Below are positions 5,631 through 33,424 of a DNA stretch of 64,000 nt, one piece after another. Below the pieces are notes generated by a model that saw nothing but the letters and a program-made list of their open reading frames with translations, was not told where the DNA came from and searched no databases. This DNA is from Stylophora pistillata (lineage: Eukaryota): positions 4,181 to 68,180 of the forward strand of contig NW_019218252.1 in the NCBI RefSeq assembly GCF_002571385.2, written 5' to 3'. Within the stretch, counting starts at the first letter, position 1, and each line of letters opens with the position of its first letter. The translations under genes were made by a program, and so were the position numbers.

Positions 5631-8188
5631 TTAATTGTTCTCAAGCTCATCTGAAGCCTCATAATTTTCTGTCAATTCCTGTTTTGTTTGATCAGTCTTA
5701 GTTCTGTTCACAGGCATGTAAACAAACACTGCATCTGTATCATGCTGAGAAATTGCTTTCCAATCTTCAATATTGACATGATAAACCTCCTCATCTCCAA
5801 TTCTGATTCCGCTGTCAAACGCAACATTTCCAAGTATAAAGTAGATGTGGCCCTCAATCTCCACAGCTCCAAAATTACCAGGTGGTATGTGAGGTTGCGG
5901 AACAGAATGCCATTGGTTATTTTCTTCATCATATACCTCAACATGACTGGATGGTATAAGTCCCCTCTGTCGCTTGCTGGGTGGGTCTGTTTTACCACCT
6001 GCAACATACAATCTTCCCCCAGCCACAAAGGCACAGGCTTGGGTGTGGCTGTAAGCTGTTCCCGCCAACTTTGTCCATTCATTCTTCATTGGATTAAATC
6101 TGAACACCCCATGATCTGCCCCTCCTTTAGCCCAAGAGCCACCAATAGAATAAATACAGTCATTGTACACAGCCACGGCACAGCCATAGAGGCCTTGATC
6201 TACATGGAAGGAAAGGCGCTGCCATATTTTCTTTGAGAAGCTAAATCTCTCGGAAACTGCACTGTGATTAACTTCACTGCCACCAATAAGGTACAGAAAA
6301 TCTTCAAGCAAGCATACTTGGAAATCACAATGTGTATTCCTCATAGGTGGTAATGCTTTCCAAGCATGAGTATCAAGCTGGTGTTGATGCACATCTTTCT
6401 CATCAAAGAGGAACAAGTAATTTCCAGTGTACAGTGCTGCTGGTGTGATTTGAAGGCTTGGTAGTTCAAGACCAGGAAATGGCTGCCATCACTTTAACAC
6501 AGTATCAAAGTACTTAACTTCAGACAAGCATGACAATGAAACCAGGGCCTAAAAAATTAACAATGGTTGTAATTAACTTTTGAAAAAAAAAATGTTGTTT
6601 AAGTCAATGTTTTCTGTCAATTTTGTACTGTGATGGTTGCAAATTTTCTAAAACAAATTGAATGTAACAGTGATTCATATTTTTATCATAGAGCACTGAA
6701 GCCCATGTGTCCTTTAATTGAAAAGGATACAAAATGATCTCAGATGTGGTTTCTACACCATGGTTTGAACCAGGCCTGAAATAGCTGCACGATCATTGAA
6801 GATGTGAGCTTAAAGAACAAAGGAAGAAATGGAAATAGCTGCAGTCCTCTAAAGGATTGCTTATTGACGGAGTTGGGTTAGCCTGTATTTCATGACCTAT
6901 TGCCAAATATTTTCCCATCTGGCACTCCTTCTCAGACACCAAGTACCTGATTCCAATGTAATTGCAAAATTAGAACACAGAAGCAGGTAACTGAGTATCA
7001 ACATAGCCGAGGCTATAAGAGAGGGGCTCCTGGGGAGGGGGGTTCCTGGTGAGGGGGGCTCCTGGGGAGGCAGGCTCCTGGGGTGCATACCAACCCTTCC
7101 TCCTGTTGCTAGCTTTCATCTGAAAAGTATTAACATGTAATGAATAAAAAAAAAAACCGTACTGAGACACTGCCAGTGTAGGCCAACCCTCACAGAAAAA
7201 TCCCCTCTCATGCCTCTGACTTGTGATCAACACACTCTAGCAGATCAAGAATGTAACCTAAGTTCGGTTTGCTTTAGGTCATCTCCCTCCCCAGCCCTCA
7301 AACCATGTATGCATGCAGCAAAACTGCAAGGGACAAAGTACTCACCTTTGATGAAAGGCGTGGCATTCCCTTCTCTTGAGCAAATGGAGAAGACAAAAAG
7401 GGCCGGACGTGCTGTGATAAGCTGTTGTACATGAGCGAAAAACACTCAGGGATGTCTTTAAACTCCTCCGATTCAAGTTCGGATAAAACAACCATTATGT
7501 CGACAAGTGCCAAACGAACTTTGTTCAGCAGTCTTGGTGCAAGTGGCAATCGGTTCTCTTTATCGTGCTTTATCCAAGAGATCACGCTTGTGAAAAGGAA
7601 CGTTTCTGAGGGAACACTTAGATCGTTACGTGGAAGGAGAAGCTCTAGCTCGTCCGCCTTAAAGTTCTCCATAAATCCTTCTTCCTCGCAAATTTCGCCA
7701 AACTTCAGAGCGAGAGCTTGGAGACTTTCTTCACGGAGTTCCGTCAAATTATGCCGATCGGCGACTCTGTGAATTTTTAGTCGAGTTTCCACTTGGAATT
7801 TATCTCGACTGAGGTTATTACCAATGAATGACGAGCACTTCTTAACTACGCTAAGTATCTGCAAATGATCAGCAGCTTCTAAAACGTCTAGTACATTGTC
7901 TTCGGTAAGCGGGAGAATCGAGGAGTAGATGAAATTTAAAATTATTTCGAAGGCCTCTACGGTTAAATCTTCTCCTTTAAGTTCCACCTCATTTTGTGTA
8001 CTTTCTTTCGTCTCGGTAGAAAACATTGCATCAAAGTAACGGCTCGAAGTAGCCAATAAAACTTTATGAGCGTGGAATATCTTTCCTTTGACGCGTAAAA
8101 TGACGTCGGTATAGCTGAGGTTTTCGCGCATTTTCATCAAATTTTTAAACATCTCGCGCGAATAGGCCAGGTCTAATTCTTCTTCCAT
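5631..8188 (-). CDS. Kelch-like BTB-BACK-Kelch protein, paralog 2 (~586 codons); one in-frame TGA
   Basis: Exon 1 8188-7346 (FHAHKVLLATSSRYFDAMF; donor AAG|GTGAGT). Exon 2 6548-5631 (acceptor TTTTAG|GCC) reads ALVSLSCLSEVKYFDTVLK*WQPFPG...LYLIGG...IYSIGG...LYVAGG, with TGA at 6491-6489. Same phase-0 intron position as paralog 1. Confidence 0.88.
7021..7085. repeat. G-rich short tandem repeat in the Kelch-2 intron
   Basis: Four gg(c/t)tcctgg units separated by G runs. Confidence 0.7.
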
Positions 8189-9745
8189 ACTGAAGTGACG
8201 ATCTTAAACATACCAAAAAATCACTATGAATTGTTTAGAAATGTTTGCAGCTCACCTGAAACAAAAATATCACAATATTTACCTTCGAACTTTAAACCAA
8301 TTTTCATTACACGTGGAACTAAGGTTTTTCCCATGTGACAGATTCCACATGGATAAAATGATTGGATGAACCGGTCCCAGACCCAAACAGCATGCTCACA
8401 TTCGGTACATGCTGATCTACGTAACTGCAGCCACGTCTTCATACAAGAAGGATTGTAAGTTGTTATGATCCAATTAAGTAAATTTCGACACTAATGCAAA
8501 GACTGGATTATCTTCTTCATCGCGTGATTTGGTCTAGTGGTCACGAGGCACATGTCAAACACAATTCAGATCACGCACGTCACGCAAGAGTACAAAGGGT
8601 GGACAATGTTTTAAACATTTCTACAAACCACCAACAAATTGTTTTTTCACGAAATAAAAATAGTTATTGGAGAAATCCGGTGAACTCAATGCAGATATCT
8701 CTACCTGACAATTACATGATTTTATATGCAATTTAAACGTGTTTTTTTTCCTTAACCTAATCTTTCCGATAGCAGATAGATGCATCAGTTATGCATGTAA
8801 TTGATTTAATCCCTCCTTCTCAATACACCTTTTAATACAAACTGTTTTCTGCACCAGAAAATTTGATAGTTGGGCTGTTTCAATGCATTCAAAAGGTTTC
8901 AAACTTCAAAAAATGACTTTCAAACACAAAGGCTTGGGTGCAGGAACAATGTAAGGCTTGGTAATTAAGTCTGGTGACATCATACAATTCTTTGAATTGT
9001 AAATCCAATTTATTTTTTTCCACCACTATACATGGCAATATTTTAACTGATTTAAATACTTTGAATTCAAATAAATAATCATAGTTATAAAGCTTTCAAT
9101 GCTGCACACTGAGAGGTAAAAAGAGTCTAAAAATAACTAATGATGCGGGAGCAATGAACTTTATCCTCGAGGTCAGGGGCTGAAGAGAACACATTTACAT
9201 ACATCAAATTCAACAATGATTATGACTGCCCATCAGACAGCCAATGGGGATTAAAATACAATAAGATCAAAATGTTTTATGGTGGTTTTATGGAATTTTG
9301 AGGACTCAGTAATCAGGAGGTAATGGAAAAGAATAAAATCAGCATCTCCCTCACTCATTCCTAACCTAAAAAATCTGAATAATCACAAAAATAGATTTTT
9401 GTCAGCAAGCCTGACAAGATGCTTAAAGTACCAGAAAAAATTCAAATTACAGAACAGATTAAAAAGAATAAAGATAAAATATCTCTGAACAGATTAGAAA
9501 AAGAGGTTCGTCTCTGTAATACTGTACTGAATATCTAGGGTCAAATCTTAGCCGTCCTTCCCCAGGAACTTCCAAATAAAAGAGATGTTGTCAGGAAAGT
9601 AATTTTCAAATCTTTCTAGTAAGAGCACATGTTTAAATATGATCTATGCCTTGCACATGTGACAAATGACTGCTCAAAAGTGATTGCTTGTTCAAATGTA
9701 GAACTTATTTTAGCTTTTATCTGGCTCTTTACACCTGAAATTTCA

Positions 9746-10642
9746 CTAACTGCCAGGTTTTTCAACTTCCCATGCTTCTTTTACTTTAGTGATGGCTTCA
9801 TCTAATTCTTCTTTCTTTGACTTTAAATCTTGGTCCACACTGTTGAGGCATTCCTGAGAAGACTCTAATGTCCTAAATTCTTTCAAAAATGAAGCAGCTA
9901 CACCATAGAGCTCCTCGTTAGATTGACTTTTTGTTTTGAGTTCATCTGCATTTCCTTTATTTTCAGATGTATCTCCACCGGCTGAGAGATCCATAACATT
10001 ATCTAGACAGATCAAACAGAATTTTGTACAAACTCAAAAACGTATACTGAAATTAAACACCATATTTTGAAAAATAAATCTTGTGAACTCTCACAAGTAA
10101 TTAACATGTAACTTTTCCCTATTAATTCCATACAAAACCCAACATACAAGCTAAGAGAATACTCACACTTCTCAAGTTGAAGTTGTTATCGTGATCTAAT
10201 ACCAAATTCTAGTAGCTAATTCACAAAGAAGTGTGTAGCAGTTAGAGGGGAGAGTGAACAATCATATCTTGGCCGGAGTTGAAATTCAACTGTGCTTTTG
10301 TTATGCTGTTGCTGATTGCAAACTATGCTTTTCTGTGATAAGCTTTCAATAACCAGAAGAAGAAGAAGAAGAAGAAACTTTATTAAGGTGTCAAAAACCG
10401 TCTAGCCAGGGAACAAATCCCTTGCCGTGATTCAGAGTTATGAGGTACCAGAAAACTTCAGAAGTTAACTCACCCGAATGACTGACCACTTTGTTTCCTT
10501 TTCCCTTGGACATTTGGGCTGAATCTCCTGCTACGATAGACGACTTAAACACGACATCATCGTCGCTTGCCGCTGCCAAATCTTCTAAAATCTGTTCGAC
10601 TGACGGAGGAGATGGACCTTGGCGAACCTTTTGGCTGGACAT
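9746..10642 (-). CDS. C19orf25: UPF0449 / C19orf25-like protein (141 aa, 2 coding exons)
   Basis: Exons 10642-10474 (donor G|GTGAGT) and 10002-9746 (acceptor TCTAG|AT). N-terminal PSPPSVEQILEDLAAASDDDVVF resembles the family motif PxPPTVEQILED..DxVF as recalled; C-terminal coiled coil. Confidence 0.8.
10095..10285. mobile_element. Degenerate MITE of the TTAA/CCC-ended family
   Basis: Similar to 42640-42822 and 53917-54128 (gagaatactca.actt.tca.gt.gaagttgtta...accaaattct...gtgtagcag). Confidence 0.6.
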
Positions 10643-10852
10643 TGAAAAGGAATCTAGAAGCAACATCACGAATTTGTACATCTAAAAGAGGAAACTACTT
10701 CATCAGCACAGCCGCCATGATGGAAATTGGCTTGAGGAAAAAAAAACCGCTGGCAACTTGTCAGTAGCAATCACTCGCACCAGTCTTCCTCCCGCTGTTG
10801 GAATCTCATGGAAAAGAACGGCCAGAAGAGCGGGAAATGAATTTAGCTCACA
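10643..10852. promoter_or_regulatory. Bidirectional promoter region between C19orf25-like and MSH3, with an E2F-type site
   Basis: 210 bp between divergent ATGs. GCGGGAAA at 10830-10837; GCCGCCAT (YY1-like) at 10711-10718. Confidence 0.6.
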
Positions 10853-13800
10853 ATGAGGAAATTAAACCTCGGAAAGCTACGTTGTTCCACACAGTCAGCC
10901 GCCAGTAGTCAGTCTCTAAGCGGTTCATACGCAAGAAATCAGTCACAGACGACTATTTCCAGTTTTTTCATCACTAAACCTTTGGTGAACAATCCTTGCT
11001 CAAGTGAAACCGGCAGGAAAACAGCTGATGGAAGTAAGCTCACAAAAAGTGCTAAGGTATGCTTGTGGGTAAAACAGCTTTTCATCTGTACAATGGCATT
11101 GTTTTTTTTTAACTGATATTGCACGAAGATTTATAAAAAGCTTATTTGAAGTTTATTTACATCGCGTTCGGGCAATCATACAAAGAACTATTTAACCCAG
11201 CCCTAGGCCTCCGAAGCCCCTTGGCAATTGCCACTTCCGNATTTTCTTCACTGTTTGTTGAACTTGATTATTCTAGAACCTTTGCGTGCAAGTCAGTAGC
11301 AAAGATAAGTAGTTCCCGTGTGTTATCCATGCTACAATGAAGCAATTGTTTTGCCTGTTGGAAGTGGGCTCCTAAATCTACAATCCTTGTAATTTCTCTG
11401 ACACTTCCAGAAACTTCCTTGATAACCTTACATTTGACAAGGGAAAATGAGGCTAATGCAGATTTTGATATATTTTTATCAATTTATTTATATATATTTT
11501 TTTTTAACTATTTGTCAAAACGTTAGAGGTGTGCCAGTGATGTAACTCACAGTGAAGACAAGGACAGTTCAAGCACACAACATTCAAAAAGGCAAAGAAT
11601 CAATCTGGATCTGCATTCCTTAAAGGAATATGTAGTGGAAGATCGTGTCACACTGGATAATAAGGAAGAGCTGAGTTGTTCTACAATGGCTAAATTAAAC
11701 TGCTTTAGGAAAGATTCAAATATCCCTGATTCACATGGTGACAAAAAGCTGAGAAATCTGCGTGTCACAGAAAAACATGGAGACAGAAAAGAGCTGGATA
11801 AAAATCATAACAACATGAGTATTGGTGGAACTAGGGATGATGATGTTGGTGATGGTTTAGAACCAATGGATTTTAATGGCAGTGCACATCAGGAAAACTT
11901 AGACGTCACTAAATTTGCTTGTACATCACATCTATCTGGAAGACCAATTCAGAACATCAAAAATGTAGCAGAAAAGAATGAAACAGAAAGATGTAAACCT
12001 GTAAACTCAAGGACTAAATCCACATATACACCTTTAGAACTTCAGTTTCTTGAAGTAAAATCCAAGTACCTTGATGTTATTTTACTTGTGGAATGTGGAT
12101 ACAGATACAGATTCTTTGGAGAAGATGCTGAGGTATTATATAATAGTTATATAAAAATTGATATACCTTATTCTGGTAAATACCACCATTATCACAGGGA
12201 ATGTAATTGTCTTCATGGCTTTAAACTCAGCCCTCTTTCCAAAAGCATTGTTAGAATGATAATCTATATTTATTATAACATAACCAAAGTGAAGCGCGCG
12301 CTCTGATTGGTCAATGTAGTGTCCCCCATTTGCCCATGGGTGTACGCTGCTGACTTGAGCAAATGCAAAGACTATTTTTCCGTGCNTTTACCAATGTATC
12401 GTTCGACGGCTCTTCAGCGAATATTTCCATCAACTTTCAGTCGAATGTTCATCCCGACGATTCAGCTAACAGCAGTTGCTTTTAGGCTTGGCTAAATCTG
12501 TATATCAATAATGATGATGATGATAATTATATTAATGATAATGACGATGATTATGATATTAATGACAATAACAGACCAAATACTTGCACCAAGTATGGAT
12601 ACTGCTTTCTTGAATTTTGGTTTACAAGTTAGTCCACTTACCCGTTACACAGCACAGTCACACTTCTCTTTTTTTTTTCCATATCTTGACAATCTACAAG
12701 ATCTTTTTCCCTAAAACAATATCTTAATGTGCGTTTTTGGTGGTGCTAACTTGTTCTTTGCACTGTCCTTTTGTTATTGTTCTTGTTTTTTATTGTTGCT
12801 TCTTTTCTTCTTTTTGTGATGTCCAGGACATTTTGCGAACTACGCGTTCCAGTTTTGCGCGTGGGGCCCGTTAAATATTAGTTTAATTTTTGTTTCAGCT
12901 TGCTGCTAAGGAACTGAACATCATGTGCCACTGGGATCACAACTTTAAGACAGCAAGCATTCCTAACCACAGGCTGCATGTTCATGTCAAGAGGTGAGCA
13001 ATTATAGTGGGATATATTATTTGAAAGTTCCTACATCTCTTTCTGGGGTATCATAATGGTTCCCATGCCACACCCTCACACCCATACCCATAGTCCAGAG
13101 AAGCCATTGTGTTGTTTTTAAGGGTGAGACAGGTTTTAATGAAAGGAAACCTCTTGCAATATTCGGATGTACTTGGGAGGGATTAGCAACTTCTCCAGGA
13201 GATGTTGCCCCACATTCTGATTACCACTGCATGTGGCAGATTTAAGAAAAGGTATTTTAAGAATAAGAAATATGGTATATTTTTAACTTGATCTTTGAAA
13301 AAAGAAAGTTGTCACTCATTTACCACAAGAGGAGTACAAAGAAAAAAGGCTTGAAATCTTTGGATATTGGGGTCTATTGCATCTCTAAGCTACCAAAAAA
13401 TTTTGGGTAAATTAGGCCATTTATAAAGTTATAACAAGCACAAAACCAAGGGCAAGCTGGTGAGCCCGTATTTGATCCCTTTAACCTAGCAACTTTCGGG
13501 TATTGTATATGTATAATGAACACCAAATCTTTCCAGATTGGTCAGTAAAGGTTATAAAGTTGGAGTGGTGAAGCAAACAGAGACTGCTGCACTAAAAGCT
13601 GCTGGAGATAACAAGAGTAATCTATTCACAAGAGAACTACAGTCGCTGTATACTAAGACCACACTGGTTGGGGAAGGTATCCTTTGTGTGAGATTGTACA
13701 GAACTGAAATGGGGTGATGGGTGTGGTATGAGGGGTGAGGGGTGAGGGGTGAGGGTGATAGATGAGAGTTAAGGCTTACTTCTCTTTCATAAAAAATACA

Positions 13801-16800
13801 CCTGTAACTCTAATAAACCAAGAGTAGAACTAAAAAATGTACAACAATTGCTTTAATTGGTTTCTTTGGAGCTCATTCCACTTCTTAAATGCATAGCTTG
13901 AAAATTGTTCTTGGTCATTCTTGTTTGTTTGAGGTCAGTTTTTTTTTTTTTTAAGGTATTACTCCTTAATCCCTCACTTTCCACTTGCCTTCCTCAAACC
14001 TTAAATCCTCAATAATTTCCCATCTCTTGGACCCTCATCACTCCTTTGGCAAAACTTTGCCAGAATTAACTCTTGTGATATTTAGTATGCAATTCTAACC
14101 AAACTACAGCTATCTTAGAGTTACTTTCAATTCTATATTGACCTAAATGACACTAAGATATGAAGACTATGGAAGATTTAGATGAAGCAGACTCTGTGGA
14201 GATGGGAAGTGGATATCTTATGTGTCTTGTCGAAGGTGATCCTCAGGATTCCAAAATAAGCAGTGATAGAAAGGTGTTTGGCATAGTGGTAAGTAAATAT
14301 CATAATTGTGAAAGAGTTCCTCAAGGTCATCAAGTCTACCTTAAAGTTAACTTTTAACAAATCCTTGAAAAGTCCACTGATATCCCTAAAGAATTTGTGA
14401 GGTTGCTCTAAGGATCTGTGAGGTTTTTGGATAGATGCAATAGGTCCATTGCAAAGATCTCTGAGGTAGGTCCGTGCCTTTTGGATCCTAGAGGTACTCA
14501 CAAAGATCCTTGAGGAAGATCAAGGATCTTGATAAAGGATACTTGTGGTACTTGCAGAGAAACCATGACTCTATAGAAGATCGTATCTCAGTTTCTCATT
14601 CAGATGTAAAAAAGGATGTACATGTGTTTCTCTTGAATGAATACTTCCAAGATTCTCTGACCCTTAAACTAAGTCAACTAATCACATGGCTCAGTCCTGA
14701 CCAATTTTTGGTTTTAAATTTGATATTCAGGCAGTTCAACCATCCACTGGCAATGTCATATATGATGACTTTCAAGATGGACCAAGCTGTATGGAGCTAG
14801 AAACACATCTTGAACACATTTGCCCTGAAGAATTACTCCTTCCAGAATCTTTGACCATCCAAACAGAAAACTTCATCAAAGATTATGTTACAAGGGTGCA
14901 AAGGTCTGTCCATACTCCATGCATTCAGTGGATGCCTTTGAGACTAGAAAACATTTCCCTCAAACAAAAATTTGTGGGGGAGGGGGAGGGACTGTTTTGG
15001 TGCCAAAAATAATCTGTTTTCAAATTCTTTCATCAGCATTGCACTTGGCAAAATAATGTCATAAAACTTTTTTAAACAGCTCCTGCCTGTGTTTGAGAAG
15101 ATTATTGACTGCAGTATCAGTTCTCCATTAAACTAGACAGTGTGTTTTAATGATTTGATGTGGGGTTTGAGTGTGGTTGGGTGAAAGATAACCCCCACCA
15201 TGTTTCTGGAAAGTGAGAGGTGTGCTGTTAATAGCAGGATTTTTATAAAGAGATGTTGTAGCAGAAGGATAATATATAGAAATGGCAGAACAAATATGAA
15301 CCGCACAATCGCTCGATGTCTGAATTAAAAAAACCTCAGGTCATTCAATTAACAGGGAGAATTCTGGATATTATCCAGAGAATTCTTGGATCTCTCATGC
15401 TACCGTTGAACACCCTGTGATAGACTGAATGATCTTTTCTTTATGTAAATATTTATAAAACAAGCGATTATCTGCCATTCATTGTGGAATTGTTTTTATG
15501 ACTATCCAACTGGATCAACTTTGCCAGCTCTTTAAAGTTATAACTCTGATCTGGTTCTCTCTAGCCCTGCTATGAGCGGTTTTTTGTTAAAAACAAAAAA
15601 ACACTGTTACATATGTTTAAGAGGAAAGTTTAGTTCCTATCAATTTTTAATTAATTCTTCAAAAGTACTGATGGATACAAAAAAGTTAAAAGTGTTTGTT
15701 TGTTACTGTTGTGCAGACCAGAGGACAGTGTAAGGCTTGAAAGAATATCTGATCAACTTTTCGATCATTCCTCTTCTCTGAAATGCATCACTGAATTTTA
15801 TGGGGAACAAAAGCCGGTGAGGAATGAGGAACTCTGCAAAGTTAACATTACCAAAGAATTGCAGTGTAACGAGCAAGAAAACAATTCAGCATTGGAAATA
15901 ATCCTCAAACTTCCCAAATCAGTGCAGACAAGCTTTGCGGCACTTATAAAGTACCTTAAAGACTTCAAGCTTGAAAAAATTCTCAGATTGGCAAGGTACA
16001 GTATGTAAAAGTATTTCCTGATCAATGTATGTGGCAGACTTTATTAAATAGTGTATAACTAATTGATTCATGATTGACTCATTTTAGATTATTATCAATT
16101 ATTTTATTTATTAATTAAATGTGTTTTGTTTGACTTCACAGTAACTTTTCAAGATTTTCTGTAAAGAACAAATTTCTAAAATTGAATGGACAAACTCTGA
16201 GGAACTTGGAAATATTCAAGAATCAGGTATTTTGCTTGACTGACGTTTAGACTTGTCTAGGATGAATGACTTTCTGAATAACTCAACAACTCTAGAAAAA
16301 ACGACTTTAAAGTCGATAACGCGTCCTAAAAATGAAAAATTGTTGTGTTATTCTAAATGTAAATAGGTAGCTCCAGCCCACATGAAAATGCTAAAACTTT
16401 GTCATTTTATATGCAGACAAATGGTGGCGAAAAGTCGTCTTTATTCTGGGTCATTAACCACACAACTACAGCATTTGGGCGAAGGCTTTTAAAGAAATGG
16501 ATTTCTCAACCTCTGCGAGATGCCAGGTTCAGCTTTCTCTTTCCTACTTTGGTATTCAACGATTTTAACTTAGCACGAGGTTTGACCCGACTATTACAGG
16601 GCTGTTGTTAGCAGTCTGCGTAAATCTTTTCCACCCTCGACTACCGTTGTGTTCTATTTCTCTTTTTTGTCTGAATGAGATTGAGGTTATGTGTCACAAA
16701 CAACATATCAATTAGAGAAGGTGTCTCCGCTGAGAAAAATCGATGCATAACAGTGTAAGACTCGAAGAAATCCCTTAAACTGCTAATTTGTTTTCTGTTT

Positions 16801-19491
16801 ACAATAATTGAACATCTTTATATGAACTGTATCTTAACCAGTGAGATCGAGAGGAGACTTGACGCCGTCACAGAGTTGTGTGGTCCTAATAGATCGTGTA
16901 TGGCATCTTTGAAAGGTCTCTTGTCGCAGCTTCCCGACTTAGAGAGAGGATTATGCACCATCTACCATAAAAAGGTCAGTTCAGCAAGAAAAGAAGTTAT
17001 TTATCGGAAGGAGGAAGGAAAAACAAGGATGGAAAGTTACCATCAGGTCTCTCTAAAAATCTGCAGCTGGTTCAGATTTCAACAGTAGAGCTACCTTAAA
17101 ATAAGTTGCGTTGTTTTTGTAAGGCTCTTAATTCATACTCATTAAAGTGGCGCTGTATTTTACGATGCATTAATTTGTTCATTGCCATAGTGAACACCAG
17201 CAGAGTTTGTGCCAATAACCAAAGCTCTGGTGAGGGTTACAAAACACGTGCAGTCAAACTACGAGGTAGCTACAAGCAAATTGGAATCTTCACTTCTGAG
17301 AAACGTTTTCAGTGAGGTATGTAGAATGAAGTTGTATCGATGCAACATTTGTGAAAACACCGTTTTTACTTACTTTGATGCATGGCCAATAAATGACTTT
17401 TTTTATTCTTTCAGGTCCCAAACTATTTGGAGGATGTTGAAGATTTTCTCCGACTGGTTGATGAAAAGGCTGCCAAGTAAATTACATTTCCTAAATAAGA
17501 CTTAAGCGCTTTTGTTTCCGATGCCCAAACGTTTGTACAGCTTAAGTAGTCTTGAAATGAAGAGACCATCGACTTCACGTTCGACTGCCATCTCTGACAG
17601 TGCAATGTTCAACTTACCTCAACATCATTTCTATTTTATTTCCAGAGACGGTGACAAAACCAAGCTGTTTTGTGACCAAACGCAGTTCCCTATGTTAATG
17701 AAATGTAATTTGGTGAGTCAGAGCTCATTTTCTATACATTTTTAAACAGAGCGCAAATTTTTGCATTCCACACACTTGTGTAAACTTTGTACTACGCTAA
17801 ATTTGAAGAGTATTTGTTATTTTCTCCGTGAATCAGGAAATCGAGAAGATTCTGACCGATTTAAGAAATCATCGCTCGGAGTTTAGACAGGTGTTACGAC
17901 ATCCATCTTTGGATTACTGCTGTGTTTCAGGAAACGAGGTATTTTCAATACGTAATTTCTCTTTGCTCGGCTCCAAAACGCGCTCTAACAGTGGTTGGCG
18001 CGCTGAATTCCGGATTGGGAGGTCTTGAATAACCTCCCAACAAGCGCTTTAGACAGTCCTGAGTAAACTGATCACAACGTATACAGGAACTGAGTTACAA
18101 CCAAAGATTTTGCATCGTTTATTTCAGTTCTTAATCGAAGTAAGGAACACGAATATGAAGACAGTGCCTTGCGATTGGATCAAAATAAGCGCGTAAGTCT
18201 TCAGGGCTCGTGAAGCCTTTTCTCCACATTGTGTTATTGATAAAACGTGGCTGTTGATTTTTTACCGATAATTCCTCCTACATAAAGAGATAATGAGTCA
18301 TGTTTTTGGTCAGAAACAGTTTTGGGGTTGCCCGATTGTAGTGTTGCAAGCAACTAACTGCTTAATTTTTAAATAGTTTTTAAAAGAAAACTTCTGCTTC
18401 TGAGACTCCTAACTTTGTCTTTAAACCTTCTCAATTTGTGGCTGAAAAGCTCACATTAGTCTCTCCACCAACCATGTGCGAAATCTCAGTCAAATGGATC
18501 TTAGAGTTACCAACTTGGTCTTTCCTGTTTTTCGGCCCGCGCTTTCGAACTACAAAGTTTTGCTGTGCGACACTCTCATTACAAACGATTTGCGACAAAA
18601 CACAGAGCTCTAATCCAAGCCATTACACAATCCTCCCCAAATGACTTTTGCATCAAGGTAGTGATTTACTGACGTTTAAGTTCCATATTGATCACTTGTG
18701 TCTATGCTTTTTCCAGTACAAAACAGGTGTCCAGATTTAGAACACCATTCGTAGAGGACAAGTTCAAACTTCTTTGCCAGTGGCGGGAACAACTGTCAAT
18801 CTGCTGTCAAGAGGCATGGCTAGAATTTCTAGCGCTGTTCTCAGAAGCGTGTGCCAGATACCGGCGTGCTGTATGTCACATCGCCACACTCGACTGCTTG
18901 TTCTCCTTGGCTACCGTGGCCAGCCAGCGAGGTTTTATCAGGTAGGGCTTGTGATCAAGTTGGAAATATTTTCTATTAAATGTTCAATAAATGGTTGTTC
19001 GCACAATGTGAAGTCACCAGCTATTTAAGAAAATTGTGAATTTTTAAGACAAATCTAAGTCTGCTGTGAGAATTCGAACCCAAGCCCCCAGTTCTGATAA
19101 TGACAGTGATGTGATAATGATCCCGATATTACCAGAATGGTATATGAAAGGGATTTTGGATTTACCATCCTACTGGGATAAAATTCAACAACTTCTCCGC
19201 GAGAAAACAATTTTCATAATGAGTAGTCGTTTTTTATTTATGTGGGAAGTTGTGATAACTTTCAGTGCGAGCTGAGTTTCCGCGCAGATATTCTCTGCCT
19301 TTAGTGCTCTTTGCAAATTGTCTTTGGAAGTAAAATCTTCATACTGATCGATAAACAAAGAATTCTTACATATCCATATTTGGATTTGAATTTATCAGGT
19401 TCTGCTGATAATACATCTCACTCCTTCGCTTCGCGAACTCGGTATGGATATTTTGAAAATACCCAAAAACAGAATTGGATTCTCTCTCTCT

Positions 19492-19554
<63 letters not shown>

Positions 19555-22500
19555 GAGAGATATTCTCAAAACACCCGAAAATAGAATTCGATTTACATCA
19601 AAATGTTTTTTCTTTTGAACGCGGTAAATGAAACAAGGTTTTGTGGTGTAGCTATCGGCAGAAGTCCCCCACTTCAGTTTGTTACTCTGGGGAATGGGGT
19701 TTATATTATGTGAACTTTTATTCTTTTCTGAGCGGAATTGCAATTAAGCTATGCGGACTCTTGAAAGCCACGTGTAAATTATATCCTGACCACCTTTGAA
19801 GTTTGCGATTTGAATGTTGCACACCCGGTAGTTTCCAAGAATATTACGGAATCGAAGTGTAATCATGATAATGGAAGGTGCTTTGCGTAAAATCTCTTGA
19901 CGATCATTGAACTTAAGCGGTTTAAATTTAAATGTTCTGTGAGCCATAGGTTGCTTCACCTATCAGCGTAACATTCTTTAGAATGCTTGATGCTCTGCAC
20001 TTGTCTTCAAAATGGGTACTTCAAGTTAGATGGAATACTGCTTCCTGACATAATAGTTAAACGTCATGTCAGATACCTATTAAAGACTGATCTCTGTGCA
20101 ACAGTTTTTTATTCGGGAACACATTACTTTTGAAGACGTACAATATCCAAATATTTCCAAGACTGAGTCCAAGTCATGAACACCTCTGATTTCGCTGAGG
20201 GACCTCACTTTCCAACTTGTGTTATGAACAAAGTTGTCTGGAGCAACAGCTATTACATAGAGAGGACAAGCTTTGCCATCAGCTCCATAATCCTCCGTGG
20301 TCTCAGCATGCCTGTGACAATTCTTATGAATGCGTTGGTGATCGCGGCAGTGAAGACAACACCCAGATTGCAAACAAATTACAACGTTTTGTTGGCCTGT
20401 TTGGCAGTTACAGATTTGTTGGTGGGATTAATTGTTCAGCCAAGTTTCATTTTCATACAAATTAACGTTCTAAGAGGAATATCACTGGAGGAATTCTGCC
20501 AATACGAGAAAGAGCTTTCCTTTTTCGCTATCATTCCCATTCTCTCATCTTTGTATCTTCTCACCCTTATAAGTTTGGAGCGCTTTGTAGCAATAAAACA
20601 CACTTATCGATACGCCACTATTTGTACTACACGTCGCCTGATAACGGCAGTCGCGATCTCGTGGATCATAGCTATTTTCCCAAGCGTACTTCACTTTCTT
20701 GTCGAAAGTTTACAACCGATAGTCAGAGCTGTGCGCGCATTTTTTTGGATGGTCAACTTTATCGTGATTATATTCTGTCATATTTCTGTTTACTTTGTGT
20801 CCCGTCGACACGAGAGTCGGATCAGATCAGAGCAGGTTTCACAGCAAGCCGCCGCTGACTTTGCAAAGGAGCAAAAAGCTTTGAAGACAACCAGAATTAT
20901 TTTAATGACTTTACTTTTGTGTATTCTCTCTCCTTTCGTGTATAGTTTATTGTTACGGATCTTCTCCAACAGCAGTAGTTATGTTGTAACAGTGATACAT
21001 TTGAGTCATCCTCTCTTGTCAGCGTCTAGTGCGATTAATTCTGCTTGCAACCCGTTCATATACTGCTACAGAAATAGGACATTTCGGGACAAATGCGTTA
21101 GGTTCTTGAAATTTAAATTTGTAAATCAGGAAACTGAAGAGTAGTAACTCTACCTGTGTTTGTCGTGGAAACATCTTTAATTTATTGAACACTGTCCAAA
21201 TGTTTGTTTTTTTTTTTTTTTCATTCTTGAAGAGAGAAGGTTGTTTCCCTCAGTTGGGATGATGGTTTTGGAGGTTTCTTGAACGTTTAAAGTCCCAGTG
21301 AAAAATGTGAACGTATCGGAAAGTAATTCAAGGTTTTCGTAAAAATATTTCTTTTTTTAGTATCTTGACACGAAATAGCTATATTAATGATTTGGACACC
21401 CCAGCTGATTTGTGGAAATACGTGGACGACACATCTTGTTCCGAAATAGTTATTAAGGGCAGTGAGAGCAAACTCCAAGAAGCTGTGGATGACCTTTCCA
21501 GACAAGTGAGTATCGATGGGTTCCAACTGAATGAGGCCAAGTGCAAAGAACTACGAATTGGATTTTCTAACAGCAACCACGAGTTTGAACCCCTAGTCCT
21601 AAACGGCAAAACCCTTGAATTAGTCACCAGTGCCAAATTGCTAAGCGTGCCCATTAGCCACGATTTAAAGTGGAACATGCACACCTCTGAACTAAGTAGA
21701 AAATGCTCATCTCGTCTCTACTTTTTGAGACAACTCAAGACATCCGGAGTTGCACCAAGCGAACTTGTGCAATTCTATGTGACATATATTAGGCCCGTCT
21801 TGGAATACGCATGTCCTATATTCCACCGTTCTCTACCAAACTACATCAGCGAAGATTTGGAACGGATCCAAAGAAGGGCACTCAGAATTATCTATCCTGA
21901 CCTGTCATATAGTGTAGCACTAGAAACAGCTGGCCTACCGAAACTTTACGAGAGGAGAGAAAAGATTTCAACCAATGTATTTGACGAGATAGTCTGTAAC
22001 CCCATCCATAGACTCCACAGCGTCCTCCCCCAAAGGAAGAGATGTAGATACGCACTGAGGCGCAAAAGTGATTTCACTCTCCCCATATGCAAAACCGAAC
22101 GCTTGACGTTTTATTTTTAGCCATATTTATAAGATGTAGATGATTTTCGTTCTTTCTTAATGACGAAGTTGTAATATTTTATACTTCTTTCTTTACCATT
22201 TGCATTTGTAAATATTCCGTAATTCAGCCTATGGCTCCAAGGTGTTTATAATAAAGTATCTATCTATCTATAAAGATATCTTTGTGACCTGACGCGTAAA
22301 ACTGATATGTGTTCTTTTTGGCAGAGACAATCACCAACTATCGGCTCATGAATAAAGTAAAGAGAAACATCTGTTTTCCATTAATTGTGTAGAGATCTGG
22401 GAACCGACACGTTCAATTTTTTGCGACACCAAGTGATATCCTTAATGGAGTTCTCGATACTTAGCAATGTCATTTCCGCAGGTTTGAAAGGCTTCCGATT

Positions 22501-25500
22501 TGTAAAGAAAGGAGCTACCCGACTTTTACTTTGCGCTTCTCTTTCTTTTTGGGATGAAAATTGGAACACCACATTCGGTGAAACACGTTTTCATCTCCGC
22601 GAAAAGTTACTTTGCGATGTGCGACGTTTCTTAGCTTGCGGTAATTCAAACATGGTACGTTAGAAAACTCCTTGAGAATACTTTGCAAAATTCGTTTTGA
22701 CTAATCTTAGAGTGATACTTGTTACGGTGAAGCGTTAACCTAATTTTGATATAATGTCTGCTTGCCGAAAGTTGAAGATACTATAGCTACTAAGCTACAC
22801 TGTAAATTAAATATAAAATAAATTCCTGAATGTGTGGTGACGAAATCCGCACTTCACGAAAAAGAGGTTTTTAAAGTATTAAGCGGTCATCAGAAGCTAC
22901 AAGGTTGGAAACGCTTATTTATGTTATGTTCAATTTAGACCATTTCTTTCATTTGTTTGCAAGGACCTCAATGGAAACTACTGGTTTACCAGTAATTGTG
23001 TAATCCTATAAAAAGACTTTTTATTTATTTATTTTTTTTATCGCATCGACCACGTGGCGACCATAATTGAACTTCTAGTCTTGAATGCGAAGTTGTTCGC
23101 CCCGGAGTCGCCCTTTTGTGTTTGATTTCTCGCTTAGTTCTTTAAAATTCGGTTTTAAATTGATCTTTGGGGCTTTGAAACCCAGTGACATGTTCTAAAA
23201 GCGTTGTTTTAGCGATCAAATACGATGTTATTCGAGATATTTGAAGAAGCGAAAGCGGACACGTAGGGCGATGATATCATCTGTTGTTATGGTAATGCAC
23301 TTTCGGTTACGTTTGTTACGTGCAACATTCGTTGGCGATTTGGCGATCTAATTTAACATCGAATTTCCATTCGATTAATTTTGAGTAACATACGAAATAT
23401 AAACATTGCAAATTTAATACTTTTAGCGAAGGAGAAGTTGAAGATCAGAAGTAATCGAGCGACCTAACGGGCTTGCGCTACTACTTGGCCTGCGTCATTA
23501 CGTTCCTGGGGGCAGAGTGGTGAGTGATATATTTACAACTCAAGCGCCAACTTTTGTGTTTGATTCCTCGCTTAGTTCCTTAAATTCGATTATAGATTGA
23601 TATTTTGGGCTCTAAAACTCAGTGATATGCTCTAAAAGCATGGTTTTAGCGATGGGATGCGATGTCATCCGAGTTATTTGAAGAAGCGAAATCGGACACG
23701 AAGTGCGATATGATAGCTGTTGTTATGGAAATGCATTTTCCGTTACGTGTAATGCACCAATCAATGTCTTGCCCCAACAGGGGGAGCCTGGGCATACCCA
23801 GGGGCTATTGACATTTTTGAAAAAATTGTCAATAAGCCCCTCTGGAGGGCCTTATTAGAATGACAAAAAGCCCCACACAGGGAGGAAAGATACATCGTTA
23901 ATTTATCTAAGGAATACCAGGACACTAAGAGATATATTTCCTCAAGAAAAGTTGAGAAGTATGCCACGATGCCACGAGCGAGACTGTCAAACACAGTTTC
24001 AACTTTAACTTTTTTTCCTATTTATATATACATACATACATACATACATACGTTAGTTGACCACTCCCCATGGGGGCTTTTCAGGGCCAATTCCCACCCA
24101 TCCCACCCCAAGGGAGGACATCCACTACNNNNNNNNNNNTTTTTTTTTTTTTTAAGCTCTTCCAAAAATGGTATCGAACGTTCCGTGGGAAAAAATTTAT
24201 TTGCCTCAATGTAAGTAACAGCATTGGGCCATTAATACGAGGAAACAAGTCTTCATAAGTCGCAAAGGTACCGCAGAAGCAGAGGCACATCATGTGTCTT
24301 CGTTTCTGCGGCAAGTGTCAGCCTCTTAAAGCCGCAGCTTATGTGAGCCTCACTGTATTTCCTTTGCATTCTGGCCTTTGTTTAAGATTGAGTTGCTATG
24401 TATTTCCGAAATTATATGTTATTTGTTTTTAAGCTCTTTGCGGATAGTTTGCGGAACCCGTGTTTTACCTCCTTGCTTATAAAAAAAAAAACACCGCCGA
24501 AGTTCTTTGATTCTTTTTGCTTTTTCCGAAAGTAATCTAAAGGGATTTTCAAGTCAGGGAAACTCTAAATATCCTTCTCAAAAAGAGTTTCTGTACAAAA
24601 GAATACATACTGAAATGTGGAAAAAAAAAATATCAATACTGCGATTCAGTTTTAGTCATAAACATCACAGACTCAGTGGAAGAGATTTCAGTCGGGTCAT
24701 GTTCTATGAACAAATTTGTTTGAAGCAACAGTTATGAAGGAGAGAGGACAAGGATGGCTATGATTTCGATCGTCATCAATGGTCTTAGCATGCCTGTGAC
24801 AATTCTTATGAATGCGATGGTGATCGCGACAGTGAAGACAACACCCAGGTTACAAACGATTTCTAATGTTCTGTTGGCTTGTTCGGCAAAGTACAGATCT
24901 GTCGGTAGGAACTGTTGTCCAACCGAGTTTCATCGCTGCACAAATTAATGTTATAAAAGGCATATCCCTTAAAGATTACTGCTAACACGAAGAGGTTTTT
25001 TTCTTGATCGTCATTCTTCCTGTGTTCTCTTCTTTGTATCATCTCGCCCTTATAAGAGTAGAGCGTTTTGTAGCGATATAACACACCTTTTGTTACAACA
25101 CTCTCGTTACTACGCGACACTTGACAACAGCAGTCGTGATCTCATGGGTCTTGGCTTCTTTGCCAGCCCCACTTCACTTTCTTGTCGATGGAGTTGAGCG
25201 TACGATCACCTTAGTTCGTGCCTCGTTCACATTTATCAACGTTTCTGTGATGATTTACTGTCGTATTTCTGTTTACTTTGTGTCCCGTCGACACGAGAAT
25301 CGGATCAGATCTGAGCAAATTTCACCGCAGGCTGCTGCTGACTTTGGAAAGCCGGAGAAGAAGGCTTTGAAGACCGCCAGAATTATTATGACTACTTTAC
25401 TTTTGTGTTTAATACCTCTTTTAGTGTATATGTTGTAGTTCAATTTTATCCTTGGTTCAAATTTTATTTTCCTTTGTTTCAAACTCATTATTATACATTA

Positions 25501-28500
25501 ACATGACTGAGAACAAAGGAAAATAAAATTTGAACTAAGGATAAAATTGAACTACAACATATACAATAATTGTTCGCAACTTCTTCAAAAGTAGTAAATA
25601 TATTATAACAGTAATACGTCTGAGCTGACCTGTTGTGGTAACCACTGGTTTGATAAGTTCCATTTTCAACCCGTTTCTATACTGCTACCGAAATAAAACA
25701 TTTCGACAAACATGTAAAGTGTTGCTGAAAATGAACCGTGCATGAGTTTATTACGAGGATTAGTAGCTTCTTCTTCACATTCGATATAGAAATCTATCAG
25801 TGTTTTCCATTTATATTTATAAGCCTTCTGTTAGAATAAACCTTCTGTTAGAATAAACCTTTTTGAAACCTCACTGTGCAGTTTTTTTGTCTTCTGAACA
25901 GTGTGACTAACACGGAAAGGTGGAAAAGACTTTTCATATCCTTCAAGTTTGCTTGAGAAACGCTCGTTTTGAAGGACAACGGAAGCCTCTCTTATCCGAT
26001 AAGAGAGTATTTGTGGGTACCGGCTTTTTCCACTTTTCTCTGTGCTAGTGAGTCACAGTAGTTTAGCTTAAGGGGAGGGTTCCCCGCTTCTCCCCATTTT
26101 ACGAGCGCCCTATCAGGCGAGATTGAGTAACTTTAGCAAGACTGAACCGTAAGCTGACAAGGAAGCGACAATTTAGTACTCATTACAACCCATGCTGTCT
26201 TGATTTGTTGTTCTAGGCCTGTCGTAAAAGACTGTGGAGCCCATATTTACATTAAACAAGGACGACATCCAGTGTTGGATACGCTTCTTTCAGAGAATGA
26301 ACAGTTCGTCCCGAATGATACTCACATGGATGTAAGTGAATTCTAAATTAACAGGAGGTCAATGAGCAAGGGCAGCAATTGTGAGCAAGAACAGAAAATA
26401 AAGTAACATGCTTGGCTACGTATACAGCGCAGCAGTAACGGAAGCCTTGCTGCGATTGAATAAATCAACTTGAAAAGCGTGGCAGTTGTAATGGGGATAC
26501 TCAAGCAATTCTAGTCGTTGAGGGCATCAGTAGTTTCTTTTCCTTTCACTTACCTAACAAGCAAGGGCACAGGAAAGAACTTACAACTAGAATTCATGGA
26601 AAGGTGGCGAAAATCACGGTCTTCTTTGTCCTTAGAGTTTTTGGGAGAAGAATCTAGGTTCTTTGCGTGTTTAGCAATTCACACTTTGACTATCGATTGC
26701 TCTCTTTGTAGGTCAACAGCAATCGTTGCATGATCATTACAGGACCAAACATGGGAGGAAAGAGTTCCTACATAAAACAGGTACCAGTCTACCTTTAACT
26801 TACCAGTTATATTCTACCGTCGTTGTTTTTGTGGGAAGGTTAATTCCAAGTTCATTAACATTTTACCTCGCAGGTTGCCTTGATTGTTATTCTTGCCCAG
26901 GTCGGCTCATTTGTACCAGCCGAAGAAGCACGGGTTGGAGTTTTAGATGCAGTTTTTACAAGGTGATGACTTGTAAGCCAAAATGTATTTTTACGCCAGT
27001 TTGGTTTCTAGGCCTTGGTTACTTTTTGTTTAATTGTAATTCCGTTATGTATGGACAGGATGGGGGCTACAGATAGCATTTACAAAGGACAGAGTACATT
27101 CATGGTTGAACTTCAGGCAAGTTGAAAATTTATTCCATTTCATCTACAATAAAGTCTGTAGGTTTCTTTTCCGATTTGTAAGTTTTTACGTTTCTAATTT
27201 GGAATTTCTCATTACCAGTGAAAAGCGCCTTTGAAAAGGAGTGTTGTCACTGGTATAGGGGCTTTTCGTTAAATCTTTCCAGCCTGTAGAGCAGCTTACG
27301 CATATTTGTGAAGCTATCACAATGACTTTAAAAGCGAACAAGTCCTGACGACATTCCGAGCCAATCATCTTTGAAACAAATCCTCGTTGTGCTATATATA
27401 CTTGTGAAGGTTTGATTTAGCATTAAGACGCTCGTTGTAAGAGTTCATTGACCGTCTATTGCTTCCGTTGCAGGAAACGTCTGACATTATTGCCCAGGCT
27501 ACTTCTAAGTCACTTGTCATTCTTGATGAGTTGGGCCGCGGTACTAGTACTCATGACGGCACGGCCATTGCCTATGCCACCGTACACCACTTCATTAGCA
27601 AGGTCGGTGTCACTTATGGTTGAAAGAAGGCGTTACTTATTGCAAAATCTTTATTTCGACAATACACCATAATTATGTAGAACGTTACCTTCAATCCCAC
27701 CAATTTTTTCTCCCACAGATAGCAAGCTTGACTCTGTTTGTAACACACTATCCGTCTCTAGCGGAGCTGGACAGATTCTTCCCAAACCAAGTCACCAACA
27801 ATCACATGGCATTCATGACATCAGAAGAGCAGGGCACCACCTGTGCCGAGGGAGGGGAAGGTGAAGACAACAATGTCGCGTGTCCCGTCGTACCGTCAGT
27901 TACGTTCCTTTACCACTTGGTGAATGGAGCGGCTGCTAGGAGCTACGGGTTAAATGTGGCTCGCTTGGCGGGAATTCCGAATGAAATAATTAACACAGCG
28001 GCCGCAAAATCACGTGAAATGGAGAACTTGATAATGTCAAGACGGTGGGTACCTTTCAGTTAGATTCGAAGGGTTGTTGACAGACTTTACCAAAGCTGCA
28101 GTGATGTTTGTCGTATGCCTGTGAGCCGTGACTTTTCTGAGGGAGCAAACCTGCCATAAGAATTGAGAGGTTTAAGGTTCGGTTTGTCGTCACTTGATTT
28201 TGCGATTTATTTATTAGCTTCGCTATCAGTTTTTAGCAAATCTAAACTCAAATACGAGCTGCTTTGACGCTTTTGAGGCATAGGAAATGCACTTCGCTGT
28301 TAAAAAGTCAATGCATAAACACTGGCTATCTTTAGAATATCTGAGAAATGTTCCTGTGATATTTAATGTCACTAAATGAACTCTCTATCTTTTTTTTTCC
28401 TTACAGATCGATCAAAACCAGTTTTGAGGAAATTTTCTCAAAATCGCCAACAACACATGAAGTGATCGAGCAGCTGAAGACTTCTTTGGAGAAGATTTCA

Positions 28501-28512
28501 CCCGATTTCTGA
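10853..28512 (+). CDS. MSH3: DNA mismatch repair protein MSH3 (23 exons, 1164 codons); in-frame TGA at codon 653
   Basis: Exons: 10853-11056, 11527-12132, 12899-12993, 13537-13676, 14158-14288, 14731-14903, 15717-15995, 16142-16226, 16417-16526, 16842-16974, 17191-17316, 17415-17476, 17646-17712, 17837-17938, 18128-18192, 18717-18941, 26217-26331, 26712-26780, 26874-26962, 27059-27116, 27474-27602, 27719-28044, 28407-28512 (sum 3495 nt, phases consistent). PIP box [18 protein letters not shown]3-type [13 protein letters not shown] (no MSH6 FxE motif), Walker [31 protein letters not shown]. Confidence 0.95.
12507..12571. repeat. Imperfect (ATG/ATA)n microsatellite
   Basis: aataatgatgatgataattatattaatgataatgacgatg... 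Confidence 0.8.
13677..14157 (+). other. U12-type (minor spliceosome) GT-AG intron, MSH3 intron 4
   Basis: Donor GTATCCTTTG is the U12 consensus. The 3' end lacks a pyrimidine tract; branch-like TATTGAC lies ~16 nt upstream of the AG. Phase 1 in GE/D. Confidence 0.85.
19482..19551. repeat. (CT)n microsatellite, about 35 units with two interruptions
   Basis: Read directly from the sequence. Confidence 0.95.
20176..21144 (+). CDS. Intronless class A (rhodopsin-like) orphan GPCR nested in MSH3 intron 16, same strand
   Basis: 322 aa with seven hydrophobic segments: TM1 LMNALVI, TM2 LAVTD, TM3 SLERF, TM4 W, TM6 KALKT, TM7 NPFIY. Confidence 0.92.
   Translation: MNTSDFAEGPHFPTCVMNKVVWSNSYYIERTSFAISSIILRGLSMPVTILMNALVIAAVKTTPRLQTNYNVLLACLAVTDLLVGLIVQPSFIFIQINVLRGISLEEFCQYEKELSFFAIIPILSSLYLLTLISLERFVAIKHTYRYATICTTRRLITAVAISWIIAIFPSVLHFLVESLQPIVRAVRAFFWMVNFIVIIFCHISVYFVSRRHESRIRSEQVSQQAAADFAKEQKALKTTRIILMTLLLCILSPFVYSLLLRIFSNSSSYVVTVIHLSHPLLSASSAINSACNPFIYCYRNRTFRDKCVRFLKFKFVNQETEE
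21384..22271 (+). mobile_element. 5'-truncated non-LTR retrotransposon (CR1/L2-group-like RT 3' end)
   Basis: INDL...WKYVDDT (RT catalytic motif), [32 protein letters not shown]. The 3' UTR ends AATAAAG(TATC)n. Possible short TSD ctata. Confidence 0.88.
23113..23748. repeat. Diverged ~200-bp direct repeat (23113-23312 and 23551-23748)
   Basis: Both copies run cttttgtgtttgatt.ctcgcttagttc...atttgaagaagcgaaa.cggacacg...ctgttgttatgg.aatgca...gttacgt; roughly 80% identical by eye. Confidence 0.85.
24030..24128 (-). mobile_element. SINE 3' end with (TATG)n tail, cut by an assembly gap
   Basis: cccacccatcccaccccaagggaggacatccac is shared with the SINEs at 47612 and 53056, but the terminal segment differs. 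N run at 24129-24139. Confidence 0.6.
24658..25763 (+). pseudogene. Pseudogenised tandem paralog of the nested GPCR
   Basis: Collinear with 20176-21144. Start ATG>ATA (24658), TGG>TGA (24721), several frameshifts and stops, and a MITE inserted after TM6. Confidence 0.9.
25429..25561. mobile_element. MITE with ~49-bp TIRs and TA target duplication (Tc1/mariner-like)
   Basis: tatgttgtagttcaattttatcctt(g/a)gttcaaattttattttcctttgtt is inverted with one mismatch. TA at 25427-28 and 25562-63. Confidence 0.88.
27117..27473 (+). other. GC-AG intron (MSH3 intron 20)
   Basis: CAG|GCAAGT donor is required to join STFMVELQ to ETSDII. Confidence 0.85.
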
Positions 28513-29749
28513 GGCTAAATTACGTCATTACTTGATATTCATACAAAGTAAATGCAGTTTTTTTCTCCTTTAAAATTTATTTTCCTCATTTTCACGCGTA
28601 GCCAAACGATAATTAGATGCTGATCCATTATCAAGACATGTGGGATGCACCAGACCAAGTTACCATAAATAGCCGCGTAAAACTTGCGATAAAAAGATTT
28701 GATCTAAAAACAGCACACTCCATGGAAAACGAGATTTTGTACCTTTGAAAGAATGTCTCCTTCACGCAATGTAGTGGACGTGTATATCAGTAAACTTGAT
28801 AACTTTTATGCTATTCCTGATGGAAACTTGCTTGCAAAGTGTGGCCTTCGGAGAGGAACCACACATAGGTAAACAGTTAACCGGTTTTAGACACTTGAAG
28901 ACAGTGTTCACCTTCACTTGTAAGCTATTAAAGAGTGGCTTGGCCAATTCAGATTTACTTAAATTAAAACACAGCTTGGTCTAAAAGCTGCGACAGAATT
29001 CCAAATTTTAGGGTCTTGGTAGAGGAGGGGACCTTAACAGGTCATACAATGTGACGCGCACCAATACATCAGAACCAATCAGAGAGTCCTATTTACGCAG
29101 GGAATTACTTTCATTTTCCCGCGATTCCAAGGCTTTGTTTCTACATTATACAGGGCACGCCCAAGAGCCATCATTGAAAAAATAAACATACCAAGAAATT
29201 CGTATATTGATTAACTCTCACTTGTCAGGTTTTACATGAGCAACCTGGAAGCAGCAACGAATAATTGATTGGAAAGAGTTGAACAGCTTCAGAATGTGTC
29301 TGAGCAATATTTCATCTATGTTCTTGGGTGTGGTTAAGTTGTTATCAAATGCACCTCTGTCTCGTATTTATCGGTGGTGGAACTTCAAATAATTTGAAGG
29401 GTCGTAAACAACCTCGCACCGCCCTTCTTTACAAGACAACCTGTGATCTGATTTAAAACTTTTGTTTTGAGCCACAATTTGCGTTTCCCTGATGTTTCAT
29501 TCATATTTTTTAACCTTGAATAAATAGAAACGTAAATATTTTGCAAAATGCCAAAATAAGGGTGTGTTTTCTTGATGAAAATAAATTGATCTTATCCTTG
29601 CTTTGACGGCGGGTTGCCTGGTTCAGGTAATTTACCTTAAATAAATAATGATTAAACACCCTTAGCCAATAGAAACTCCGCACACTTTAGATGAAATATA
29701 ACTCCCGGAAATATAATATCATTAGCAATCGAGAGCTAAGTTCTTCAAA

Positions 29750-32674: not shown

Positions 32675-32705
<31 letters not shown>

Positions 32706-33424
32706 GTCGCAGGGCGATCAACAAACCTTCAAGCAGAATGAGGTATTTCCACTCTGCTATAATTTTGAAACTCAGTTCTAAGTTCAGGTGCCTCAAAATA
32801 CATACAGCAATGCAAAGAAAATACAAAGAAAAATAATGGAGGTCTCCACGGCTCTACATTTAACGCCACTGGAGCTCATAGAGATAAGTAACTAAACGTT
32901 TTAAGGACATTGTGCACATTATAGGTAAGCTGCAACTCGCACTGAGGGTTTTAACACTTTTTTCTTAACTCTTCAAATATAAAACTTTTCGATGCTCGAA
33001 AAAAACCGAATAATTTAATCCAAAGATTGCACTTCCCTTTACACTTCTCATTAATTTTCAGCAGCCCCAACCTGTGGAAAAGTTTCCTTTATCTCTCCCT
33101 GAACAGCCAAGCGATTCGCCATCAAAACCATCAAAACCAGACACGTCAGCTCTCAAGGATCTGAAAGCTGACATTGAGAGCGCCATCCAGGACGCTCTGA
33201 GGAATGCTGTAACAAAAAGTGCGCAGAAGACTAAGCCGAGTGAGGAGGTACACGTTGACGTTGAGAGGGCTAAGCCTCAGATCCCTGAAGCGTCTCCTGA
33301 ACAAGCGGGATCTGGATCTGGAGTCCAGACACAAAATATATCTCAGCAGGGTAGCGTTGGGGATGCTGTGAATGGTGAAGCCCATAGTGGTAGTGGGTCG
33401 GGTTTAAAACCCGAATCCCGGTGA
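29750..33424 (+). CDS. Signal-peptide, single-thioredoxin-domain (PDI a-like, WCTHC) protein with a long low-complexity Ala/Pro/Tyr/Gln-rich tail (~599 aa)
   Basis: Exons 29750-29892, 31087-31171, 31393-31513, 31655-32742, 33062-33424 (NAGNAG acceptor). MLSFLVVLAVINWPGCLG signal; LVDFYAPWCTHC, FAKVDC, IQGYPTIKLF, Y.G.R. Ends ...KPESR, no KDEL. Confidence 0.85.

Follow-up and report, generated by a model that had tools for sequence, protein, structure and literature searches.

The in-frame TGA codon found in the MSH3 gene of Stylophora pistillata, at positions 17191-17193 of the window (the whole 64,000-nucleotide stretch of DNA that was analysed), is probably a wrong base in the assembly at 17193. 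This base appears to be a mis-resolved heterozygous site, and the gene an ordinary, intact coral MSH3. The letters of the codon are as originally described, but the existence of A17193 in a living animal is doubtful.

The MSH3 model extends from 10853 to 28512 on the forward strand and consists of 23 exons with 1164 codons. All of its acceptors are AG and all of its donors GT, apart from the GC donor that follows exon 20 (GCAAGT). The resulting GC-AG intron (27117-27473) lies outside the coverage of the RNA examined. The model has no frameshift and a single in-frame stop among its 1164 codons, the TGA at codon 653. Exons 12-23, including the MutS_V domain, are open frames, which confirmed the original prediction that all 12 exons downstream of the TGA are intact. 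Pfam domains were found in exon 2 (PF01624, MutS I) and exon 22 (PF00488, MutS V), and the Walker A motif is present. The model aligns end to end with MSH3 of Porites, Acropora and other animals, and the proteins retrieved with the window exons in a protein search carry the name Msh3. The Porites orthologue scored 977 bits against human MSH3, 301 against MSH6 and 199 against MSH2. In full-length alignment the window gene is like eukaryotic MSH3, a subunit of MutS-beta (human PDB chains 8rz7_B and 3thw_B; Porites, Acropora, Oculina), with which it has in common the MutS I to V domains, the Walker A motif and the local sequence around the site. It is unlike known MSH3 only in TGA653 and in a small number of unusual residues (Pro660, Leu732), none of which recurs in other data of the same species. 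The window gene is a member of the MSH3 family, and selenoprotein status is rejected.

Four of the 24 sequencing runs found were examined, namely X1 and X2 (DNA contigs), X16 (an RNA contig) and X24 (RNA reads). Protein similarity and the run labels both mark the host as a stony coral. The MSH3 mRNA is expressed and spliced: nine GT-AG joints across exons 7-16 are present in the X16 contig and eight of these nine in the X24 reads. Protein searches with exons 11, 2 and 10 found no spliced or annotated MSH3 of S. pistillata, and there is thus no independent translation across the exon 10/11 junction.

Several other features were observed in the window. Intron 16 of MSH3 (18942-26216, 7.3 kb) holds a same-strand single-exon frame of a rhodopsin-family GPCR (20167-21144, PF00001) as well as a frameshifted similar GPCR copy at about 24724-25438. 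A 269-aa frame in the same intron (21311-22120) resembles, by eye, the end of a LINE-type reverse transcriptase and gave only a weak ALKBH8_N match in Pfam. On the reverse strand, a BTB-BACK-Kelch gene (5631-8203) and a small frame (10391-10681) lie in head-to-head orientation to MSH3, whose ATG is about 170 bp away. A 387-aa frame rich in Gln, Pro and Ala (31618-32781, forward strand) has a signal-peptide-like start and no Pfam match.

Exon 10 (16842-16974) is followed by a GT donor at 16975, and exon 11 (17191-17316, 126 nt, phase 0, MutS III region, joints 16974^17191 and 17316^17415) is preceded by the acceptor AG at 17189-17190. The TGA is the first codon of exon 11, as had been claimed, and the human sequence YHKKCSTQEF quoted for this site matches the human MSH3 PDB chain. 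A contig of another coral (L001) has the acceptor at the same position, followed by TGT. Eighteen coral MSH3 records were inspected; the 12 that cover the site have Cys in ten cases and Ser in two, so that the proposed check of the codon in relatives returned a sense residue in all 12. The two records with Ser at the position of Cys653 are those of Acropora palmata and A. cervicornis (P0202, P0171).

Both DNA contigs carry C at 17193 (depth 21.7 of 21.7 in X1 and 132.2 of 132.2 in X2) and therefore TGC, coding for Cys. X1 and X2 come from different studies and have identical contig break points, and they may represent one genotype. The reads of the source animal are absent from the examined runs: at 16735 neither arm of X1 or X2 matches the window. 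A third genomic contig, on which the ORF P0217 was called, reads through in another frame. Its exon 10 is identical to that of the window, and it has His against Asn in the window, which requires C at 17193 (this comparison rests on the block from 17100 onward). A T allele at 17193 was not seen in the S. pistillata data examined. These results demonstrated that TGA is not fixed in the species and that S. pistillata has TGC here. The original prediction had listed a null allele or an error as its first option and had named reads with TGC/TGT as its own refuting finding; reads with TGC are present in both DNA runs examined. The loss of MutS-beta that it had derived from a true null is refuted for the species as a whole, since TGC alleles exist.

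The RNA is less uniform. C was scored at 17193 in two of seven X24 reads, the other five not being scored as C, and in 0 of 22.8 in the X16 contig. The underlying table lists differences only, so that at face value the unscored X24 and X16 bases are A, that is, the stop; differences near piece ends were dropped from this table, and 17193 is the third base past the junction, which leaves the table ambiguous at this position. The exon-11 piece of X16 has four mismatches, three of which are among the rows listed, and the fourth may be 17193C. X16 also carries 17212G, 19 nt from 17193, which accompanies 17193C in X1, X2 and P0217. The X24 tally has no unassigned A>T class left, hence a scored TGT allele is absent, which leaves A, G or no score for the five reads. 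X24 showed the same shortfall at 17212 (2/7), 17298 (2/5) and 17695 (1/5); there the classes C>A, G>C and T>A among its unshown rows would fit second alleles (17212A, 17298C and 17695A) and not the window's own base.

Read at face value, these unscored bases, in five of the seven X24 reads and in the X16 contig, speak for a genuine nonsense allele on one haplotype (TGC>TGA, C653X), either confined to the assembled animal or segregating within S. pistillata. Its product would consist of 652 residues without the clamp and ATPase domains and would be a null, tolerated as a heterozygote. We consider such an allele unlikely. Nonsense-mediated decay is expected to deplete an mRNA whose stop lies far before the last junction, and the TGA sits 1430 nt upstream of it; yet the stop allele would make up the majority of X24 reads. 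The unscored X24 reads at neighbouring sites are probably better explained by second alleles, a nonsense allele leaves the cluster of third bases described below unexplained, and A at 17193 was positively shown in no dataset examined. On the other side, a real MSH3 null is not implausible because MSH3 is often lost in animals: according to the available part of PMC8438181, 11 of 17 cnidarian genomes have it, and the mutator phenotype of an MSH3 loss is weaker than that of a MutS-alpha loss. In addition, a human MSH2 nonsense mRNA gave no sign of decay in the available part of PMC10602924. A bolder version seems distinctly improbable: TGA would be a fairly common allele, carried by the five unscored reads of X24 as an independent sample, its mRNA would evade nonsense-mediated decay, perhaps accompanied by a degree of Ser/Cys readthrough, and colonies homozygous for the allele would be without MutS-beta. 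A fixed loss of MSH3 with further decay was not found, as TGC alleles exist, the stop is single, there is no frameshift and downstream conservation is unreduced. Within the text accessible to a literature search, no report of a coral MSH3 null was found. Two short coral models were considered as carriers of a shared stop and rejected: that of Desmophyllum (621 aa) skips exons 10-15, and that of Oculina (711 aa) reads through the Cys and ends at exon 12.

The original prediction had further proposed that a real stop might be bypassed by splicing to the in-frame GAG acceptor ending at 17205, with loss of five codons, and had judged two CAG acceptors, with ends at 17200 and 17203, to be out of frame. 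The frames were confirmed for all three. Use of the donor GT at 16979 together with CAG 17200 or CAG 17203 restores the frame, and all three joins are open. Moreover, the acceptor ending at 17190 is weak (0.2 bits with a matrix built from MSH3's own acceptors) and CAG 17200 is similar (0.4 bits); with the same matrix the 21 other acceptors scored 0.3-17.4 bits, CAG 17203 scored -4.6 bits and GAG 17205 -8.1 bits. Despite this, the only joint listed in the RNA was 16974^17191, represented by seven X24 reads with five different starts and by the X16 contig, and none of the three alternatives was listed at a floor of three reads. The CAG/CAG/GAG sequence (17198-17205) is conserved coding sequence (Pro-Ala-Glu), identical in the coral with TGT, and gaps occur in 0/80 homologues at positions 648-661, which include 653-657. 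The rescue through GAG 17205 was therefore not borne out, and a stop that is real and skipped by splicing in any of these ways is very improbable.

Least probable of all is a G at 17193 in the unscored RNA reads, giving TGG (Trp), as an allele or through A-to-I editing of the stop. X16 and X24 have one unshown A>G row each. Trp was present at the site in 0/80 homologues, the reading would require G on two different haplotypes, and ADAR editing is disfavoured by a 5' G neighbour.

Recoding of the UGA, as Sec via a SECIS element or by Ser/Cys readthrough, would give a full-length MSH3. Cys is indeed the commonest residue at the site among 80 homologues (41/80), as the claim that orthologs have Cys implied, but the site is variable, with Ile in 13, Ser in 9, Ala in 9, Val in 5, Thr in 2 and Leu in 1. 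Since 39 of the 80 homologues are non-Cys, the position is unlike a catalytic Sec/Cys (redox) position. Ser, found in two of the 12 coral records, is tolerated. The conspecific DNA carries TGC (X1, X2, P0217), by which Sec is excluded as a feature of the species, and an in-frame UGA fixed in the species or common to relatives was not found (TGC in these three, TGT in L001). A SECIS element was sought and not found by Rfam in 28000-30000 at E values up to 10 or in the window at the gathering score. A SECIS-like pattern scan of 28512-29900 gave three matches, all of them past the first AATAAA (29181) and weakly folding (0 to -7.5 kcal/mol). Rfam also returned a nuoG match (29202-29251, 28.1 bits against a gathering score of 33) and an RT-16 match, both taken as chance. 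The folding of exon 11 was no better than that of its shuffles (z -0.06).

The literature bears on recoding in two ways. The original prediction had regarded recoding in a MutS protein as without known precedent. For selenocysteine this stood, as a literature search found no report of Sec in MSH3 in the text it could reach, and 'MutS' is absent from the main text, as available, of a survey of invertebrate selenoproteomes (PMC3473315). For readthrough it did not: the available part of PMC10602924 describes human MSH2 p.S612X, a Sanger-confirmed nonsense codon with a downstream stem-loop, at which SECIS-independent readthrough is promoted by SerRS in an overexpression system. Like TGA653, p.S612X interrupts a MutS homologue midway with a premature stop, and in the same source the MSH2 mRNA is not depleted. 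In contrast to that confirmed, stem-loop-bearing case, the coral TGA653 is an unconfirmed allele in an exon without unusual structure. Nothing in the coral data calls for readthrough, and the proposed recoding as Sec or Cys fails on the conspecific TGC, on the outcome of the SECIS searches and on the variability of the residue; we give it very little credence. Recoding, splicing rescue and a Trp codon are very improbable even when taken together.

In favour of a wrong base, the window departs from both known alleles at several polymorphic sites near the stop. At 18 listed sites X1 and X2 carry different bases, and at four of these the window has a third base: G at 17377 (T in X1, C in X2), T at 17383 (C and A), T at 17390 (A and G) and A at 18042 (C and T). 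The binomial probability of four in 18 is 3.9e-4 at a rate of 2% per site and 0.011 at 5%. The first three sites are adjacent in the intron and fall within 14 bp (17377-17390). At 17695 the window has T (Leu732) and both DNA contigs have G (Val); 7/7 proteins of the P0001 cluster imply A, which gives Ile as in other corals. At 17212 the window has C (Pro660), whereas X1, X2, X16, P0217 and 5/5 informative proteins of the P0001 cluster have G (Ala), and other corals have Ala, Ser or Thr at residue 660; this is probably a second mis-resolved site. Positions 17181 and 17298 show the same pattern more weakly, their second allele coming only from P0217, a divergent haplotype. Counted on the 40 rows listed of 61, transitions account for 12 of the 18 differences between X1 and X2 and for five of the 15 window-only differences (Fisher P 0.084), the latter being mostly transversions. 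On the same rows the window differs from X1 at nine positions in the 210 bp around the stop and at 18 in the other 3141 bp. The differences of the window are not all errors, because its bases at 17617-17639 match a natural haplotype (P0155). Over 17100-17312, P0217 differs from the window by 11 amino acids in 71 codons of a frame that is mostly intronic, and several of these differences are absent from X1 and X2; such divergence may point to deep haplotypes or to a cryptic sister lineage. When residues shared by none of 16 homologues were listed for the whole gene, errors could not be told apart from lineage change, and only Pro660 and Leu732 were kept from this list, on the basis of the conspecific data.

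The third bases at polymorphic sites near the stop thus suggest that heterozygous positions were mis-resolved. The assembled animal would have been heterozygous across the stretch around 17193, and some of its heterozygous positions would have been written as a base belonging to neither allele, possibly by random filling of ambiguity codes, by codes left uncomplemented or by a poor local consensus. In this way TGA may have arisen from a synonymous TGC/TGT site at 17193, and Pro from an Ala/Thr site at 17212, 19 nt away. Third positions of Cys codons are typical places for synonymous C/T variation, and random filling of heterozygous Cys and Tyr third positions is expected to give 0.2-0.4 false stops in MSH3 at a heterozygosity of 1-2%. 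Decay after the stop was not observed, identity to seven full-length coral proteins being 77-81% after it and 70-75% before it. Against an artefact stand the five of seven X24 reads and the X16 contig that lack a scored C and read as A at face value, and the deeply diverged haplotypes of S. pistillata (P0217), which raise the natural rate of three-allele sites. A literature search for such a mechanism of mis-resolution found no papers. Consensus errors at heterozygous sites of draft diploid assemblies are a source of spurious premature stops, and the MSH3 TGA resembles these in being a lone stop in a conserved gene with a sense codon in other data. It is unlike the usual cases in leaving a recognisable mark, namely third bases at polymorphic sites.

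The assembly appears to hold bases matching neither allele at heterozygous sites, which makes single-base oddities such as stops, radical substitutions and broken splice sites suspect. Third bases are spread across 17181-18042 (17377, 17383, 17390, 17695 and 18042, probably also 17181, 17212 and 17298), and further findings that rest on one base of this assembly may likewise be artefacts. As biology, the TGA probably means nothing. If the stop were real and common, it would be a case of gene loss caught under way, the reef coral would serve as a natural mismatch-repair mutant, and the part of MutS-beta in somatic microsatellite change could be tested in nature, in an animal that is clonal and long-lived.
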